Virus record (IMG/VR): IMGVR_UViG_2531839531_000008
Strand: one strand, 5' to 3'
DNA length: 55,149 nucleotides
Origin: a virus
Lineage: Duplodnaviria; Heunggongvirae; Uroviricota; Caudoviricetes
Shown here: in pieces, positions 1,963 through 54,103 of the stretch
Layout of the letters: every line of letters begins with the position of its first letter
How positions within the stretch are numbered: the first letter of the stretch is position 1
Notes under the pieces: generated by a model
What the model saw: only the letters and a program-made list of their open reading frames with translations
Database searches by the model: none
What the model was told of the DNA's origin: nothing
Translations under genes and position numbers: made by a program

Positions 1963-4434
1963 TTAAAAATCAGCCTGATTCGGAATCAGTTTTTGCCAGA
2001 TAGCTGAAACGTATTTTGCCTGGTAACGGGCGTCATCAAGTGCATTATGGCGCTCACCTTCGAATGGAATAGCCGTTCTGGCATCGAAGTCTATGGCTTT
2101 CCCCAGCTCAACGATTGTGCGTACATCGCGATCGTTGTAGTAACGCCACGGGCAGGGGATCCCCTGCCGTTCGTATGAACGGCGCAAAATCGTGTTGTCG
2201 AAGTTGGCTCCATTTCCCCAAACCTGAACAAAAAATTCACCGGAGTTTTCGTCGATAAATTCCCGCAATTGTAACAGTGCATCATCTAACGGGATTTCAT
2301 CGGTCATAATGGCAGATTGCGCTTCGCGTGATTGCTTAAGCCACCATTTAATGGTGTCCCGATCAATGACTCCGCCAGCAGTTTCCAGATCGATAGTCTT
2401 ACTAAATTCCGGTCCCATATCTCCGGTTTGCGGATCGAAAAATATTGCACCTATTGAGATAATCGGGGCATCAGGATTTTTTCCCATGGTTTCAAGGTCG
2501 ATCATTAGATGGTCACACGTCCTACTGGCGGATGTGATTTCGTGATGACTGTTCACCTTAATTGAGTGATCTGCCGTCTCGCCAGTTTCATTATCGCTAT
2601 TGTGATGCTGATTGCCGCCAGTGTTCTTCTTGTTTGGATGTTCAGCGCCTTCCATTTCCTCCGGATCATCTTCCTGAACTTCAACCTGATACTCTTCATC
2701 GAATGTTTCCTGGTATGTTGCGTCGCCCATCACCGCGCCACAATCAGGGCAGTTGCCGCCGCCGGTCTGACCGCAGGCGGTGCAGATCTTTTCCGGTTCC
2801 TGTTGCACTACTGGTTCAGGTTGTTTCGTTTCTGGCTCGTTTTGTAACGCATTTGGGCTGTTTTGTTCCGCTTTCTGGCCGTTCTGTTCCGTTTCTTGCT
2901 GGTTCTGGTTCACAGTATCGCGGGTCTGGATCCCCTTAACCCATTTCGGATCATTCGGGTCGCTAATCCCTTCAATAAATTCACCACGTGATGCAGCAAG
3001 CAACTTATCGGCGTCAGGCTGGCTGATATTGGCTGCCTGCATAATTTTGTTTACTTCGTCAGCGGTAACTTTTACCGGTTCTGGCTGTGCGGTCGTGTCA
3101 GATGCACCAGTATTTTGTTGTGAACCTGAGTATGTACTGTTTTTGCGGGCGAAATATTCTTCTTTCGTGATTTCAGTAGCCCCGGCAGCCAGCGCCTTAT
3201 CCAGACCAGAAAGTTTGTTTGCGCGACCGTATTTTTCGCCATCCTTGTCGGTGAAGAGGAAGTAGAACGGCCCCTCACGCTCTACAGATGGTTCGACTTC
3301 CACTTTGCATTCGGTTTTTTCGTTGTCCGGAATTGCCGTTTCCACTGCATCAGTTTCTGGTACTGGCGACGAGAGAGTATCAGTTGCGCTCTGATTTGTT
3401 CCTTCATCTTCAAACACGCCCTTTGTAGTCAGGTATTCAGTAATGTATTTGTTCAGTGCCACAGGATCTTTGTGAATGTCGATCGGACGTTCACGGACAA
3501 GGCCAAAAATAGTCTGGCGGTCGTAGCGAAGGGCATCAGGCTGTTTGCGCATCGATGCCGAGATACGCTTCCAGTCTTCGCGGTCGTTGTCGATAACTTC
3601 ATTTTTTGCCCAGCGATGGATGCTGCCGTCAATGTTTCCGGCATCCACATCACCAGGCCAGAGAGCGTAGGCCAGTTCGTCATCCAGTGTTTTCCATGTC
3701 TGCTTGTATTCGCGATGAGTGGCAGCAATGACCGGGTTGATTTTTCCTGTTGAATTTTCAGTGTTCTGTTGATTGGCTCTGGCGCGGGCGAGATCAACAA
3801 CAGACGTGTATTTTCCGGTTTCCTTGCGCTCACCTTCGCGACGTTTTTTCCAGATGCGCATCTCTGCCTGAATTTCGGGCCATTTGGCACCAGGCTTACA
3901 TTTATGCTTAACCCACCCGATGGCATGCAGCTTAAGCTCCGGATACATGGCGTTAACTTCTGGCATTTTCATCAACGCTTCAACGATATGTCCGTCGAAT
4001 GCTGCCATGTCTTCCTGCAACAATTCCTGCGCGCTAATCACCATATCAACGGTGATGTTTTCACATGTGTCGAACTTAACCATGACAGCGTTCTGTACTT
4101 CAGGGGCCAGCTTGTCAAAAGTGACGTTCATCGGATCTGATTCAGTCTCAACCGGGACAAAGGAAGCTGACTCCTCATCCCAGCGGTTTTCCTGCATATA
4201 TTCAGCATCCCAGGAATCGAGGGCAGGGCGGGGTATACCGGGTTTATCCTCGCAAACAAGAAATTTATAAGCGCAGTCCTGAGCAGCCGGATAATGCTCC
4301 AGGAATTGCCAGGTAAATTTGGCACGGGCGCGGCGTTCGTCGCCAGCTTCAATGGCAGTGGCTACAGCGACTGCACCTTCTTCCTTTATTGCCTGTTCGT
4401 CCGGAATAGCGGCGCAAATAAAGACTTTACTCAT
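1963..4434 (-). CDS. RecE-like exodeoxyribonuclease VIII family protein with C-terminal DEDDh-type 3'-5' exonuclease domain and internal Cys4 zinc ribbon
   Basis: 823 aa; central segment KLLAASRGEFIEGISDPNDPKWVKGIQTRD matches RecE as recalled; CxxC...CxxC motif; C-terminal DLET...NALDDARY exonuclease motifs. Confidence 0.75.
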   Translation of the reverse strand: MSKVFICAAIPDEQAIKEEGAVAVATAIEAGDERRARAKFTWQFLEHYPAAQDCAYKFLVCEDKPGIPRPALDSWDAEYMQENRWDEESASFVPVETESDPMNVTFDKLAPEVQNAVMVKFDTCENITVDMVISAQELLQEDMAAFDGHIVEALMKMPEVNAMYPELKLHAIGWVKHKCKPGAKWPEIQAEMRIWKKRREGERKETGKYTSVVDLARARANQQNTENSTGKINPVIAATHREYKQTWKTLDDELAYALWPGDVDAGNIDGSIHRWAKNEVIDNDREDWKRISASMRKQPDALRYDRQTIFGLVRERPIDIHKDPVALNKYITEYLTTKGVFEDEGTNQSATDTLSSPVPETDAVETAIPDNEKTECKVEVEPSVEREGPFYFLFTDKDGEKYGRANKLSGLDKALAAGATEITKEEYFARKNSTYSGSQQNTGASDTTAQPEPVKVTADEVNKIMQAANISQPDADKLLAASRGEFIEGISDPNDPKWVKGIQTRDTVNQNQQETEQNGQKAEQNSPNALQNEPETKQPEPVVQQEPEKICTACGQTGGGNCPDCGAVMGDATYQETFDEEYQVEVQEDDPEEMEGAEHPNKKNTGGNQHHNSDNETGETADHSIKVNSHHEITSASRTCDHLMIDLETMGKNPDAPIISIGAIFFDPQTGDMGPEFSKTIDLETAGGVIDRDTIKWWLKQSREAQSAIMTDEIPLDDALLQLREFIDENSGEFFVQVWGNGANFDNTILRRSYERQGIPCPWRYYNDRDVRTIVELGKAIDFDARTAIPFEGERHNALDDARYQAKYVSAIWQKLIPNQADF

Positions 4435-4514
4435 GTTGTTTTAACCTCATTACAGATTTAAGGGTGAACAAATCCCTGCCATTGCTGGCATATAAAAATG
4501 AAACCGGATATTAA

Positions 4515-4718
4515 TTACGGTGCTGTTTTAAGTCCTGCCGGGATTTCGTTATTATCCATGTGAATAACTTTATCGACCGGATAACAGTTACCGGGAATTT
4601 TCTGTTCCGCTGCGGCAGCCATGCATTCTTTCATTGAACCGTAAATGTCAATAACCATGTCAACAGGCTCACCAGTATTAAGAAAAACAGTCAGAGTGAG
4701 GGCAATAGTAGTATTCAT
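4515..4718 (-). CDS. hypothetical small early-left protein
   Basis: 67 aa from internal Met; ATGA overlap with upstream gene suggests translational coupling. Confidence 0.4.
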   Translation of the reverse strand: MNTTIALTLTVFLNTGEPVDMVIDIYGSMKECMAAAAEQKIPGNCYPVDKVIHMDNNEIPAGLKTAP

Positions 4719-4903
4719 TGCCAGTATCCTTTTTGCATCGGGCGTAAACGTGCCAGCATTGAAAGAATGCATATTTTATTTAATAGCTCCCGTTCGTATT
4801 TTCTCTTATTAATGGCATCTTCAGTAAATACAGGGTTACTGATTCTGACACCAATTTCAAAACAACCTTCAGACGTATTGACGTTTGGTAATAACGTTTC
4901 CAT
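4715..4903 (-). CDS. hypothetical small early-left protein (kil/cIII-position)
   Basis: 62 aa from internal Met with GAGGA RBS; preceded by 19-bp inverted repeat arm. Confidence 0.45.
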   Translation of the reverse strand: METLLPNVNTSEGCFEIGVRISNPVFTEDAINKRKYERELLNKICILSMLARLRPMQKGYWQ

Positions 4904-5470
4904 TATCGCGTCCTCAACAATGAATTTTGTGATGCGGTGCCTGGTGCCTCCAGGTGACGTTAACCAGTTAATAATTAACGCCGGATACAGAGAACCCACC
5001 CATAAGAACCAATACGGAAGTCAACTGGTCTTTTTAACTGTTCCGCGTGCGCTGAGCCGCATTCACCGCATCACAAAATTCACTTTAAAAGGGGCGGGTA
5101 TCATGGGAAAAACAAAACGGATACCCGCCAAAAGGTAATCAACATGGGCTGTTGCAGCGGGGTTGTCACTCAGGCGTATGGTCAACCTGACAACCCGGTG
5201 GACATTTGCGAGGAACGGAGAACCCCCGCCATACTTACCGCCGCGCCATTTCGCGGAGTGCCACAACCGGAAGCGCACGGTCGACGAAAATTTAACGACA
5301 GGCTATCTATGAACCAACAACTTCGCCGTGCGCTTTCGCGTTATGCCCTGACTTTTCAGGGAGATATCCTTTCAGTAAACTGTCAGTGCCGGATGCTCAC
5401 CCGTGTCCGGCGCACGCACTCCACCTCACCCGTGGAGAACTCCTTAATTACTAACCCTCAGGAGGATGAA

Positions 5471-5746
5471 ATGGGGTTTGATGTCAATGAAACTCTTAAC
5501 TCTCTTATACGGAAAATTAATGATTTTGATAAAACACTACAGCATGCTGCGGCGCGTAGTGATATAACATTGTTAGCAATTTCATACCTTGCATCTGCCA
5601 TGAATAAAGATGAAACGGTACGAAAGAATCTCGTTGATTATATCGACTCGCTTCAGCCGGGCACTTTCAACCCTGAGAGCTTCAATCATGAGAAAGAGCA
5701 TGTTAAATCTGTAATTAATTCTCTTGTTTTGAATCAAAAGAATTGA
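5471..5746 (+). CDS. hypothetical protein, AT-rich
   Basis: 91 aa; AGGAGG RBS 8 nt upstream of ATG; 3' end overlaps convergent gene. Confidence 0.45.
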   Translation: MGFDVNETLNSLIRKINDFDKTLQHAAARSDITLLAISYLASAMNKDETVRKNLVDYIDSLQPGTFNPESFNHEKEHVKSVINSLVLNQKN

Positions 5747-6056
5747 TGCTTCTTGTTACGAAGCAATTTTCAAGGGGTTCTATCCGAATCCCTTTCTTTT
5801 CCATTAACAAGCCAAACCCCTTATTAATGATGTCCATTAATTCCAGGAAGTATTTTTTATGTAAATCCTGGTTATCAGAGAGTTGCTTCTCTTCGTACAG
5901 ACCGATAAAGGCACGACGCACGTTACCGGATATATTATCGATGGTTTCTTTTTCTACGGTACTCAGGTCAAGAGTCGCCAATTGAGAATGAACTATATTC
6001 GCTGCCATTTCCTGGAATGGCATTGGTAAATCTTTAAATTCCATCGTCAACCTCAT
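5715..6056 (-). CDS. hypothetical protein downstream of cI on same strand
   Basis: 113-aa ORF, AT-rich, convergent overlap with 5471-5746. Confidence 0.4.
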   Translation of the reverse strand: MRLTMEFKDLPMPFQEMAANIVHSQLATLDLSTVEKETIDNISGNVRRAFIGLYEEKQLSDNQDLHKKYFLELMDIINKGFGLLMEKKGIRIEPLENCFVTRSINSFDSKQEN

Positions 6057-6286
6057 CAGTCAGTATTTCTGGCTAACCAGCGACGCGCGCCAGCTTCGGT
6101 TTTAAACGTTTTGCTTTTGGTATACGTCATCGCCGTGAACGTGCCGTCTTGGTTTGGAAACACGCCGTATACCAGAGACTCGTTGTTGCCAAGATCGATA
6201 GTATCCATGTTGACCTCATTTCCCCTTAACGCCGGGGTAGCGGAACAAAAACCTGCTGCATAGTTAAAGTTGAACCCTGCCGTCAT
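6056..6286 (-). CDS. hypothetical small protein downstream of cI (possibly YdaF/YdaG-like)
   Basis: 76-aa ORF (50 aa from internal Met); position matches Rac ydaF/ydaG. Confidence 0.35.
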   Translation of the reverse strand: MTAGFNFNYAAGFCSATPALRGNEVNMDTIDLGNNESLVYGVFPNQDGTFTAMTYTKSKTFKTEAGARRWLARNTD

Positions 6287-6497: not shown

Positions 6498-7136
6498 TTA
6501 AATATCTTGTTGAATTTTAAAGCATACGCCCAATATGCAAGATAGATCATCCAGCATAATTGAAGGGTAGCGAGGATTCGTGGGGACTAAAAGAATATCC
6601 GGCCCTTCTATCTCCAGTTTACGAATGACAGGTGTTGTGGTCCCTTTGGGTAAGGCAAGGACAATATTTCCTGGTTGTACGGTTCGATCGGGATCAACAA
6701 AAACTGTTGAACCATTTGGGATGGAAACTCCCCCACCAGATGTTGACATACTGTCACTCTCTAGAACAACTGCAAAGGTATTGACCGGGATTTCTCCGAC
6801 AAGCTGCACACAAGAGGTTATTGAGGAATTTTTCATATAATCACTCCAGCTTGCTGCCTGCTGAAGTGATAGTAGCGGAACCGTTTTTATCGGCGGTAAA
6901 GATAGATCAAGCGAATCACCTGTATTTAACTCTCCTCCATTAAGAAGCCAATTTTCGTTTACTTTCAATATTTTTGCCAGTGAACTTATGTAACGCGAGG
7001 ACGGCGCTCCTCCACCGTTCATCCATTGACTTACGGAGCCTTTTGATGCGCCAGTGCCATTGACAAGGTCTTTGCCTTTCAGGTTTAGCGCATGCATACG
7101 TTGGGTTATGCGTTCAGATATAGTTTGCTTGCTCAT
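6498..7136 (-). CDS. cI: CI-type prophage repressor (XRE HTH + S24 LexA-like peptidase domain)
   Basis: 212 aa; N-terminal HTH (SQWMNGG), C-terminal S24 fold; divergent from cro-like gene. Confidence 0.85.
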   Translation of the reverse strand: MSKQTISERITQRMHALNLKGKDLVNGTGASKGSVSQWMNGGGAPSSRYISSLAKILKVNENWLLNGGELNTGDSLDLSLPPIKTVPLLSLQQAASWSDYMKNSSITSCVQLVGEIPVNTFAVVLESDSMSTSGGGVSIPNGSTVFVDPDRTVQPGNIVLALPKGTTTPVIRKLEIEGPDILLVPTNPRYPSIMLDDLSCILGVCFKIQQDI

Positions 7137-26049: not shown

Positions 26050-27860
26050 AACTGGCACCGAACGTAAAACAGCAGTCACGCGGCATAAAACACAAAGAAA
26101 CAGAAGTCATTATTTTTGCGGGTAGTGATGCCTGGTCACACGCAAAACAATGGCAGGAACATGACGCGCGTATGGCCGGAGATAATGAGCCTCCTGTGTG
26201 GCTTGGGGAGCAGCAGTTATCTGAACTGGATAAGCTGCAAATTGTGCCGGAAGGCAGAAAATCCGTGCGCATATTCAGGGCCGGATATCTTGCGCCAGTA
26301 ATGATAAAGGCGATTGGTCAGAAGCTGGCGGCGGCAGGCGTACAGGATGCAAATTTTTATCCTGAGGGTATGCACGGCCAGGAGGTGCAGAACTGGCGCG
26401 AATATCTGGCCCGTGAGCGCCAGAATCTTTCTGATGGTCTGGTGATTCAGCTTCCTGTTAAGAAAAAAACAGAAGACAGCGCCGCACCACTGGCGCTTAA
26501 CCAGATGGGAGCAAGCCAGCGCGGCGAAGTTCTCCTGGCACATTATGGCGGTGAACTGGCGATTCATGCCGACTCTGACACTGTTCACCATTACAACGGC
26601 GTTGTATGGGAGCCGATTCAGGATAAAGAGTTACAGCGTGCTATGGCGCAGATTTTCATTGATGCGGAGATCAGCTATTCGCAGAACGCCATTAAATCGG
26701 CGGTCGATACCATGAAGTTAAGTTTGCCTGTAATGGGGAATACAGCCCGTAACCTGATTGGATTCAGTAACGGGGTATTTGATACCAGAACAGGTAATTT
26801 TCGGGAGCATAACAAAAACGACTGGTTGTTAATTGCCAGTGAATTACCTTTCAGCCCACCAGCAGAGGGGGAAACGCTGGCAACACATGCGCCGAATTTC
26901 TGGAAGTGGTTACGCCGCTCGGTGGCAGAGAATGACCGCAAGACGGATCGCGTGCTGGCTGCATTATTCATGGTGCTGGCGAACCGGTACGACTGGCAGT
27001 TATTCATTGAGGTAACAGGTCCAGGGGGAAGTGGTAAAAGCGTGATGGCGGAGATTTGCACTATGCTGGCGGGTAAGGCCAACACAGTATCGGCAAGCAT
27101 GAAGGCGCTGGAAGATGCAAGGGAACGCGCGTTAGTGGTTGGCTTTTCGCTGATTATCATGCCGGATATGACCCGCTACGCTGGTGATGGCGCAGGAATT
27201 AAGGCCATTACAGGCGGTGACAAGGTGGCAATCGACCCGAAGCATAAAGCCCCCTACTCAACACGCATTCAGGCGGTCGTGCTGGCGGTGAACAATAACG
27301 CCATGTCATTCAGTGACCGCAGCGGGGGGATCTCACGTCGTCGGGTGATATTCAATTTTTCGGAGGTTGTACCGGAGAACGAGCGCGACCCCATGCTGGC
27401 AGAAAAAATAGAAGGAGAGCTGGCGGTTGTGATTCGCCATCTGCTTACTCGTTTTTCTGACCAGGACGAAGCTAAACGCCTGCTGTATGAGCAGCGGAAA
27501 TCAGAAGAAGCTCTGGTGATAAAACGCGAGGGCGATTCGCTGGTGGACTTCTGTGGCTATCTCATGTCGTCGGTAATGTGTGATGGTCTGTTAGTGGGTA
27601 ATGCCGAAATTATTCCGTTCAGTCCGCGCAGGTATCTTTATCACGCCTATCTGGCATATATGAGGGCACACGGATTCGGTAAACCTGTAACACTGACGCG
27701 CTTCGGTAAAGATATGCCGGGGGCAATGGCGGAATATGGCAGGGAGTATATAAAACGGAAAACGAAGCACGGTTTGCGTTCAAATGTGACACTGACAGAG
27801 GATTCAGAAGACTGGATGCCATCATGTGCATCGGTCACAAATGACGACAGCAAAAATTAA
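26046..27860 (+). CDS. satellite replication protein: primase/SF3-helicase family (P4 alpha C-terminal-like)
   Basis: 604 aa; Walker A GPGGSGKS; followed by iteron array. Confidence 0.8.
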   Translation: MKLAPNVKQQSRGIKHKETEVIIFAGSDAWSHAKQWQEHDARMAGDNEPPVWLGEQQLSELDKLQIVPEGRKSVRIFRAGYLAPVMIKAIGQKLAAAGVQDANFYPEGMHGQEVQNWREYLARERQNLSDGLVIQLPVKKKTEDSAAPLALNQMGASQRGEVLLAHYGGELAIHADSDTVHHYNGVVWEPIQDKELQRAMAQIFIDAEISYSQNAIKSAVDTMKLSLPVMGNTARNLIGFSNGVFDTRTGNFREHNKNDWLLIASELPFSPPAEGETLATHAPNFWKWLRRSVAENDRKTDRVLAALFMVLANRYDWQLFIEVTGPGGSGKSVMAEICTMLAGKANTVSASMKALEDARERALVVGFSLIIMPDMTRYAGDGAGIKAITGGDKVAIDPKHKAPYSTRIQAVVLAVNNNAMSFSDRSGGISRRRVIFNFSEVVPENERDPMLAEKIEGELAVVIRHLLTRFSDQDEAKRLLYEQRKSEEALVIKREGDSLVDFCGYLMSSVMCDGLLVGNAEIIPFSPRRYLYHAYLAYMRAHGFGKPVTLTRFGKDMPGAMAEYGREYIKRKTKHGLRSNVTLTEDSEDWMPSCASVTNDDSKN

Positions 27861-27872
27861 ACTTATGGAATA

Positions 27873-28103
27873 ACTGTTCACCACTGTTCACCCTGTTATA
27901 AATATCTTTTATATCAGTACATTATAGGGTGAACAGTTATTTGTGAACTGTTCACCAAACTATTCACTGTTCACCTTTTTGATTATTTATTGAGCTTTAA
28001 GGGTGAACAGTGGTGAACAGTTGGTGAATAGTTTTTGTGAAACTATTCACCCCTTAACATTATGAATAAAAAGGGAAAATCTCAAAAGGTGAACAGGTGA
28101 AGG
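27873..28103. repeat. iteron array, probable satellite replication origin
   Basis: about 12 copies of CTGTTCACC / GGTGAACAG in both orientations in AT-rich DNA right after primase gene. Confidence 0.65.
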
Positions 28104-53519: not shown

Positions 53520-54103
53520 TGGCATTCAGAATGAGTGAACAAGCACGGACCATAAAAATTTATAATCTGCTGGCCGGAACTAATGAATTTATTGGTGAAG
53601 GTGACGCATATATTCCGCCTCATACAGGTCTGCCAGCAAACAGTACCGATATTGCACCACCAGATATTCCTGCTGGCTTTGTGGCTGTTTTCAACAGTGA
53701 TGAGGCATCGTGGCATCTCGTTGAAGACCATCGGGGTAAAACGGTTTATGACGTAGCTTCCGGCGACGCGTTATTTATTTCTGAACTCGGCTTGTTACCG
53801 GAAAATGTTACCTGGTTATCGCCGGAAGGGGAGTTTCAGAAGTGGAACGGCACAGCCTGGGTGAAGGATACGGAAGCAGAAAAACTGTTCCAGATCCGGG
53901 AGGCGGAAGAAACAAAAAACAACCTGATGCAGGTAGCCAGTGAGCATATTGCGCCGCTTCAGGATGCTGCAGATCTGGAAATTGCAACGGAGGAAGAAAC
54001 CTCATTGCTGGAAGCCTGGAAGAAGTATCGGGTGTTGCTGAACCGTGTTGATACATCAACTGCACCTGATATTGAGTGGCCTACGAACCCTGTCAGGGAG
54101 TAA
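53519..54103 (+). CDS. tfa: tail fibre assembly protein Tfa
   Basis: 194 aa, ATGA-coupled to stf. Confidence 0.75.

Follow-up and report, generated by a model that had tools for sequence, protein, structure and literature searches.

A covarying spacer helix and a predicted sRNA terminator in a dicBF-type prophage operon, with a likely role in RNase III processing

In a 55,149-nucleotide (nt) stretch of tailed-phage DNA (IMG/VR record IMGVR_UViG_2531839531_000008, the whole of which we call the window), a noncoding region at 4904-5470 carries two perfect inverted repeats, and both are very probably minus-strand RNA elements of a dicBF-type operon, the shorter serving as the terminator of a small RNA (sRNA) and the longer as a spacer helix that is cut by RNase III. 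The homology of the locus to prophage Qin of E. coli K-12, the helix and its covariation, the strand on which the helix acts and the geometry of the terminator all emerge from the analysis itself. The finding holds up, but most of it is already accounted for, as it concerns the dicF-dicB spacer, whose processing, both by RNase III and by RNase E, has been a subject of K-12 research since 1990; what is new is an unannotated allele of the sRNA and an unreported kinship of the dicB/kilR leader with STnc100, an sRNA of Enterobacterales prophages.

The arms of the longer repeat, at 4921-4939 (TGAATTTTGTGATGCGGTG) and 5064-5082, are complementary at 19 of 19 positions and lie 124 nt apart, and the shorter repeat pairs GGCGGGTATC (5093-5102) with GATACCCGCC (5120-5129) at 10 of 10 positions across a 17-nt loop, which confirms both the coordinates and the perfect complementarity given in an initial annotation of the region. 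Inverted repeats of 15 nt or longer whose arms lie no more than 400 nt apart number five in the entire window, and the 19-base-pair (bp) repeat is the sole perfect one of at least 19 nt at that spacing. By a back-of-envelope estimate (about 55,000 × 400 × 4^-19) such a repeat is expected about 1e-4 times, and it is not a chance product. The search for further copies that the initial annotation had advised found the repeat once in the window and found both arms conserved in K-12 Qin and in phage Tritos. The first arm had also been placed upstream of the ribosome-binding site of a small gene, and indeed it stops 7 nt 5′ of the GAGGA (4914-4910) that precedes the minus-strand open reading frame (ORF) at 4715-4903.

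That ORF is dicB (Table 1). Read on the minus strand, 4880-5458 aligns to K-12 Qin over the interval that begins immediately past ydfC and ends at the dicB start, with a mean column identity of 92%, and an alignment of minus-strand 4880-5480 with the Qin ydfC-dicF-dicB region and phage Tritos keeps both arms. On this sequence evidence we take 4904-5470 to be the homolog of the ydfC-dicF-dicB spacer of Qin and the minus strand to be the transcribed one. A megablast of 4700-5500 detected similar DNA in 58 phage records and in 4,735 of 5,426 complete E. coli genomes; the annotations there are dicB and ydfD, joined in phage Tritos by ‘DicF antisense sRNA’. The operon reads leftward from a cI/LexA-like repressor, in agreement with the initial assignment of the repeats to an early-left region. 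The same annotation saw no convincing ORF in 4904-5470, which essentially stands, as the K-12 annotation of the aligned spacer holds the noncoding RNA dicF alone, although mechanical ORFs are present. The order of elements is the same in the window and in K-12, whose dicF-dicB region (Faubladier 1990; Balasubramanian 2016; Ragunathan 2023) is the closest known system: a spacer with an upstream RNase III helix, an sRNA terminated by GGCGG...CCGCC, the bases AAAG, the long helix, dicB and ydfD. Each window arm is identical to its K-12 counterpart at 18 of 19 positions and the core is more than 90% identical, whereas the window helix is perfect and the K-12 helix contains two wobble pairs, the variable core of the window carries a 14-nt insertion, the body of the window sRNA has a different loop and a 9-nt deletion that removes UUUCUGGUGACG, and the genes upstream are a DUF1391 gene and an unknown gene in place of ydfABC.

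Read as RNA from the minus strand, the 19-bp repeat forms a helix of 21 bp, which we call P1, extended beyond the perfect arms by a G·U pair (5083/4920) and an A-U pair (5084/4919). A 174-nt minus-strand segment folds at −70.3 kcal/mol (z −6.2), with P1 closing a multi-branch core. Folding both strands, a check that the initial annotation had named, gave a mixed answer: the plus strand folds as well (−80.4 kcal/mol, z −4.75), as expected of any inverted repeat, and it is the structure model that favors the minus strand, with our covariance model R1 scoring 175 bits on the minus strand of the window and 31.7 bits on the plus strand. A motif scan of viral and genomic collections yielded 27 distinct leader-type sequences, and pairing was scored over 45 pairs in a covariance-model alignment of 29 distinct copies; pair counts were redone on this alignment, as MAFFT had mis-registered the 3′ arm in two genera because of the Rac-type bulge. 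Overall, 96.3% of the cells pair in the 29 copies, or 95–96% when the MAFFT alignment is counted too, and that alignment, which is independent of the covariance model, agrees on the pairing. Double-sided changes occur in 15 of the 45 pairs, and 9 of these compensatory sets, seen across genera, fall within the 21 pairs of P1, where 93.9% of cells pair. The covariation score of 0.170 compares with 0.088 in shuffled alignments, none of 500 of which reached the observed value, and it falls to 0.04 or less when the pairing partners are slid. G·U cells outnumber A·C cells by 160 to 18 in the aligned pairs. Specifically, positions 15 and 16 of the arms form U·G and G·U in K-12, C-G and G·U in Tritos, and C-G and G-C in the window; in a Klebsiella copy (L187) the outer helix is wholly different in sequence yet complementary, with at least 7 positions differing in each arm, and a Scandinavium copy has a helix of 22 bp. 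Within the core, the compensatory pairs of hairpin P4 are 138/158, 139/157 and 142/154 of alignment A4. P1 is thus conserved as a helix and not as a sequence, and it acts as minus-strand RNA. Neither Rfam at gathering thresholds nor model R1 found a further copy of the spacer, or a canonical STnc100, in the window.

Table 1. Features of the dicBF-type locus and other elements of the window
Feature	Position	Strand	Basis
P1 5′ arm, RNA 5′-UGAAUUUUGUGAUGCGGUG-3′	5064-5082	-	repeat search, fold, covariation
P1 3′ arm, RNA 5′-CACCGCAUCACAAAAUUCA-3′, 7 nt before the dicB Shine-Dalgarno sequence	4921-4939	-	repeat search, fold, covariation
Whole structured spacer RNA of about 165 nt between sRNA terminator and dicB (P1, P2, variable P3 region, P4, P5)	4919-5084	-	
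P2 hairpin GCGGCUCAGCGCACGC, nearly invariant in the leader subfamily	5045-5060	-	fold, alignments
P4 hairpin GGCGUUAAUUA-UUAAC-UGGUUAACGUC, three pairs with compensatory changes	4956-4982	-	fold and alignment
P5 hairpin CCUGG-AGGCA-CCAGG	4940-4954	-	motif scan and alignment
Predicted terminator hairpin (10-bp stem, 17-nt loop) and CCUUUU tail of the sRNA at the dicF/kilS position	5087-5129	-	fold and alignment
Conserved noncoding spacer, homolog of the Qin ydfC-dicF region	5130-5458	-	alignment with K-12 and Tritos
Upstream 13-bp helix (5338-5326 with 5280-5268)	5268-5338	-	homolog of the K-12 190-nt precursor 5′-end site
dicB, 62 amino acids, cell-division inhibitor, Shine-Dalgarno GAGGA 4910-4914	4715-4903	-	Pfam PF05358, E 1.1e-37, and annotations
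YdfD-type DUF1482 protein, next ORF after dicB	4515-4718	-	
DUF1391 (YdfA-type) gene	6056-6286	-	
cI/LexA-like repressor	6498-7136	-	
sok antitoxin RNA	12384-12558	+	Rfam above threshold, 108.7 bits
Three tRNAs in a row	16883-17129	+	Rfam above threshold
IS009	53862-54060	+	Rfam above threshold, 225 bits

The RNA of the shorter repeat, UUUUGGCGGGUAUC-(17 nt)-GAUACCCGCCCCUUUUAAAG, forms a hairpin of −17.2 kcal/mol (z −4.0) on the minus strand; CCUUUU follows it there, and only there. Because this U-tract lies on the minus strand and the plus strand has AAAAGG in its place, we model the hairpin as an intrinsic (Rho-independent) terminator for leftward transcription. It aligns where dicF of K-12 (b1574) and DicF of Tritos are annotated, and also with kilS, and the 5′ end of the window sRNA is predicted to lie probably near 5135-5142. 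All lambdoid copies that we collected share the frame UUGGCGG...CCGCCC-U(4-6)-AAAG-helix around an sRNA body that varies between a DicF type, a KilS type, the type seen in the window and others. As a side observation, at least four or five alleles (DicF, KilS, window type and hybrids) occupy the dicF slot, with the terminator frame as their only common part.

In K-12, the 5′ part of DicF pairs with xylR and the 3′ part with ftsZ and pykA (PMC5069750). Compared with DicF, the window sRNA lacks the 5′ segment UUUCUGGUGACG and has CCGUUUUGUUUUUCCCAUGAUAC in place of the loop/3′ segment ACUCCGUGACUGCUCUG; judged by sequence, it is a divergent allele at the DicF position without the regions that pair with ftsZ/pykA and xylR. 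The Rfam DicF model (RF00039, gathering threshold 48 bits) gives no match in 4400-5900 even at E ≤ 10 and scores K-12 dicF at 76.7 bits, so that the window RNA shares with DicF the syntenic slot and a GGCGG...CCGCC terminator with its U-tract but neither the Rfam score nor the pairing regions. A duplex-energy test of the window sRNA against ftsZ used a crude method that did not separate even authentic DicF from shuffles. The window-type allele is present in 153 (megablast) to 206 (blastn) of the 5,426 complete E. coli genomes, and the records listed show no annotation at its position (5085-5165, minus strand). In the Rac prophage of K-12, we observed separately that the 3′ half of KilS (L007, 2411-2466, minus strand) matches Rfam DicF below threshold (39.1 bits, E 4.8e-5), and because of this match KilS looks like a DicF paralog in the same slot upstream of kilR. 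The CCUU of the window terminator tail could pair with GAGG of the dicB Shine-Dalgarno sequence and extend the helix by 4 bp; this pairing is not kept in kilR copies and we give it little weight.

RNase III dependence and the 72-nt species described next are carried over to the window from the K-12 literature. DicF has two 3′ ends, one at the terminator (53 nt) and an RNase III-dependent one on the full-length dicBF RNA, giving 72 nt (PMC5069750; PMC9438474), in the account that reviews give of Faubladier et al. (1990). Counting that reviewed length from the annotated 5′ end of K-12 dicF reaches position 10 of the 19-nt 5′ arm; as the arm covers DicF lengths of 63–81 nt, the placement tolerates an error of about 9 nt either way, and by homology with the 72-nt end an RNase III cut is predicted near 5073 in the window. 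In published K-12 RNA-seq, the per-base coverage of one spacer position, 1649470, amounts to 26 reads in an rnc mutant but is 0 in each of the two wild-type replicates (PMC5371410, Table S1), a weak independent hint of RNase III action. RNase III is also reported to make the 5′ end of a 190-nt DicF precursor, upstream of dicF in K-12 (PMC10448788, Ragunathan 2023). This end maps to about 5273 of the window, in the 3′ arm of the upstream 13-bp helix, and by analogy the window sRNA would thus be bracketed by two RNase III helices. The long helix itself immediately follows a dicF-type terminator and immediately precedes the ribosome-binding site of dicB, as seen from the K-12/Tritos alignment and from Pfam, and forms an uninterrupted double-stranded RNA of about two turns that is kept by selection on the transcribed strand. 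Helices of 20–22 pairs occur among the leader copies that follow an sRNA terminator, as well as in three leader copies from outside E. coli (L136, L141, L187).

At the RNase III sites of the lambda N-leader and cIII and at the T7 intercistronic R sites, an early polycistronic transcript forms a long duplex a short way upstream of a ribosome-binding site, and cleavage at such phage leader sites separates functional RNAs and can alter downstream translation or stability. The window duplex has no sequence relationship to these leaders, and whereas they are simple bulged hairpins, it encloses a 125-nt conserved multi-hairpin core. We propose that read-through of a leaky terminator would produce the long duplex, that RNase III would cut it near its middle, and that this cut would detach the sRNA from the dicB mRNA, leaving the sRNA with a 3′ tail of about 19 nt, like that of the ‘72-nt DicF’ of the K-12 reviews. 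If the two cuts are offset by the usual 2 nt, the partner would fall near 4929/4928, and the double cut would yield a dicB mRNA with an unstructured leader of about 25 nt together with an excised core RNA of about 144 nt. We infer that cleavage takes place at this exact helix in the window prophage, that the second cut follows, and that dicB translation or mRNA stability may be affected.

A number of points weigh against this processing model. The 72-nt end was placed by arithmetic from secondary sources and the annotated 53-nt coordinates. The study of the 190-nt precursor maps RNase III solely at the precursor 5′ end and is silent on a downstream site (PMC10448788). The rnc signal consists of only 26 reads, which lie in the core and not in an arm, and its authors label it ‘known’ without detail (PMC5371410). 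The core also exists with a closing helix of 6–11 bp in P1-like phages and canonical STnc100 RNAs, which means that RNase III cleavage cannot be the function of the core itself. Finally, the window terminator has just four U residues and a 17-nt loop, making its efficiency uncertain.

Other readings of the repeats fare much worse. The initial annotation had proposed a paired operator for a DNA-looping regulator, and a perfect 19-bp inverted repeat beside a gene start, with arms about 12 helical turns apart, is what a regulator looping the intervening 125 bp might use. The arms, however, vary by complementary substitution around no fixed recognition sequence, to the extent that the Klebsiella arms diverge and still pair, and an excess of G·U over A·C is an asymmetry without meaning in duplex DNA; in addition, the immunity region with its repressor is 1.4 kb off and in K-12 the homologous spacer is transcribed and processed, which leaves an operator pair barely credible. 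Similarly, the perfect terminal repeats, the small size and the presence of similar DNA at 11,304 places in the 4,735 E. coli genomes would suit a 162-bp miniature inverted-repeat transposable element or its remnant, but we consider this extremely improbable: the window holds a single copy, each copy examined occupies the same syntenic slot (from an sRNA terminator or tRNAs to a gene start) with constrained spacing, no target-site duplication flanks the unit (AAAG on one side, TTGT on the other), and the internal hairpins co-vary as RNA does.

The remaining proposals assign the repeat to a plus-strand RNA, as in an antisense locus resembling ralA, or to a nut/put antitermination signal, and we judge them highly unlikely. 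Stable folding of the plus strand and the location of the element in an early operon, where antitermination operates, speak for them. Against them, both the structure-model scores and the wobble pattern fit the minus strand, and a promoter scan found no plus-strand site upstream of the repeat, with site counts within the level of shuffled sequence; the sole nearby plus-strand match, at 4878-4906, has 9 of 12 consensus positions and falls within the dicB start region. What follows the short hairpin on the plus strand is AAAAGG and not a U-tract. An antitermination signal would further have to act from downstream of the terminator that it is meant to overcome, and the canonical relatives of the element themselves precede a working terminator. 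Because of the covariation, the G·U excess and the minus-strand model score, we regard a DNA operator pair and a plus-strand RNA as excluded. The initial suggestion of a nut-like or terminator structure therefore survives in its second half, the 10-bp hairpin with CCUUUU on the minus strand being the predicted terminator, and fails in its first, there being no boxA or boxB and the element coming after the terminator; likewise, the suggested sRNA/antisense locus is an sRNA locus, at the dicF position, and not a ralA-like antisense one. Neither dicB and dicF nor the link to RNase III had been recognized in that annotation.

The spacer is not confined to dicB: it also precedes kilR in Rac, kil in Shiga toxin (Stx) phages, tciA/terB in P7 and D6 (both P1-like), a gene of the Rha family and a gene for a 94-amino-acid protein. 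The distance from the spacer to the start codon is constrained, at 17–41 nt in the alignment of leader copies, and, measured from the inner CACC of the 3′ arm, where the core motif ends, the start codon is 32–44 nt away in all copies but one. In the kilS-kilR leader of Rac, and before kil in the Stx phages POCJ13 and 75/02, the same junction and spacer precede another small cell-division inhibitor, kilR in the case of Rac. KilS is an Hfq-associated sRNA (b4833) in the 5′ untranslated region of kilR (PMC8175672); its 3′ end lies at CCGCCCUUUUU, 3 nt short of the helix, and it reportedly has its own promoter. The kil/kilR leaders differ from the window in that the helix has a bulged A and U·G pairs and P4 has two compensatory swaps. 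The published paper on OxyS and kilR contains nothing on the kilR leader.

At gathering thresholds Rfam gives no match at the locus. A permissive search identified STnc100 (RF02076), whose threshold is 47 bits, with a score of 34.1 bits (E 2.5e-5) over positions 21-154 of the 206 in the model, and leader copies in general score 32.5–47.8 bits on this model, one of them reaching the threshold, compared with 131.4 bits for a canonical copy. The closing helix and three hairpins of the window copy align to the RF02076 consensus, and the motifs GGUGAAU and UCACCNGGAGGCACNNGRCACC together with helices P1, P4 and P5 are common to more than 150 distinct canonical STnc100-type copies from Enterobacterales. 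Specifically, the window shares with STnc100, itself related to PasD, a closing helix xxGGUG/CACCxx, the junction GGUGAAU, a hairpin before UCACC, and a hairpin CCNGG-AGGCA-CCNGG followed by CACC; in this last hairpin, P5, the window has CCUGG/CCAGG and canonical STnc100 has CCGGG/CCCGG, a compensatory swap of U-A for G-C. The canonical closing helix is short, with a median of 7 contiguous bp. Canonical copies belong to the late region, one place being downstream of stx2B, and in the copies inspected a terminator comes after the element, whereas the window copy is part of an operon, with an sRNA terminator ahead of it, and leads without a terminator of its own into the dicB Shine-Dalgarno sequence. 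The window copy falls below the gathering threshold and is not a stand-alone gene with its own promoter and terminator. On sequence grounds we consider the window spacer orthologous to the K-12 dicF-dicB spacer and expect it to work like it; of STnc100 it is only a distant, sub-threshold relative. We found no STnc100 paper in the searchable library that also names dicB or dicF in such a sense.

Several observations concern the canonical elements themselves. Many have an apparent −10-like box 7–9 nt before the closing helix, as read from the flanks without a scan; two or three elements occur within about 1 kb in some prophages and in Pantoea and Klebsiella plasmids (L015, L071, L163 and others); and the family is far wider in Enterobacterales than its Salmonella name implies. 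One canonical STnc100 directly adjoins a tRNA cluster in locus L008, and none follows the tRNA cluster of the window.

The kinship with STnc100 raises the possibility, compatible with the processing model and extending it, that the core of about 144 nt is a functional RNA, either a trans-acting sRNA of the Hfq type, as STnc100 and PasD are, or a cis-acting leader governing how well the toxic gene after it is translated or how stable its message is, for which the helix provides a handle for excision by RNase III; we put this forward tentatively, as less likely than not to be correct. The sharing of core motifs and of P1, P4 and P5 with the canonical copies points in this direction, as do the Rfam STnc100 scores of the leader copies (32–48 bits, one at threshold) and the occurrence of the same core before five different genes at the near-uniform spacing noted above. 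A staggered cut in mid-helix would leave a closing helix of 9 bp, similar to the 6–10 bp of canonical copies and the 9–11 bp of P1-like phages, and STnc100 RNAs are abundant in enterohemorrhagic E. coli, where one was seen by northern blot (PMC5331693). Against it, the literature records no function for STnc100 itself, the window copy scores below the Rfam threshold, and the core with its 0 wild-type reads against 26 in the rnc mutant shows no sign of a stable excised product in K-12, with the caveat that the operon is repressed in those data and that small RNAs may drop out of libraries. The dicB/kilR spacer might be an operon-embedded STnc100/PasD-like RNA in which 12 extra bp let RNase III excise an RNA of about 144 nt closed by 9 bp, a conjecture that we hold with low confidence. 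If it were true, one read-through transcript would give rise to three products, an sRNA, an excised structured RNA and a leaderless-like toxin mRNA, and the cassette would be a portable expression module placed before toxic ‘moron’ genes (dicB, kil, tciA/terB, Rha-family) in lambdoid and P1-like phages.

About 3–4% of complete E. coli genomes carry the window-type sRNA allele, which is never annotated in the records listed, so counts of ‘dicF copies’ in pathogens miss it. The spacer before dicB, kilR, kil and tciA is one conserved covarying RNA that falls just under the STnc100 threshold and hence goes unannotated. The long helix also offers a testable handle on how expression of a toxic division inhibitor could be uncoupled from an sRNA in read-through transcripts.

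On the opposite strand of the locus, RefSeq annotates, in a genome 99.9% identical to the window, a plus-strand hypothetical protein equivalent to 5309-5746, which intrudes on the conserved noncoding part. The predicted protein has 145 amino acids, and its first 50 or so codons lie opposite the conserved spacer; an alternative start at 5471, which has AGGAGG before it, would shorten the product to 91 amino acids without a Pfam match and looks more plausible than the one at 5309. This ORF is placed between the early genes and dicB, as sieB is in Rac. Across the dicB/ydfD junction, 16-nt arms at 4621-4636 and 4757-4772, in the ydfD-like gene and in dicB respectively, are 94% complementary at a distance of 120 nt and could form a structure in the mRNA. 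Far from the locus, a repeat cluster (27859-27894 with 28000-28035, and 27883-27937) contains inverted and direct copies of ACTGTTCACC; its 36-nt arms, 83% complementary and 105 nt apart, resemble iterons or operator repeats.

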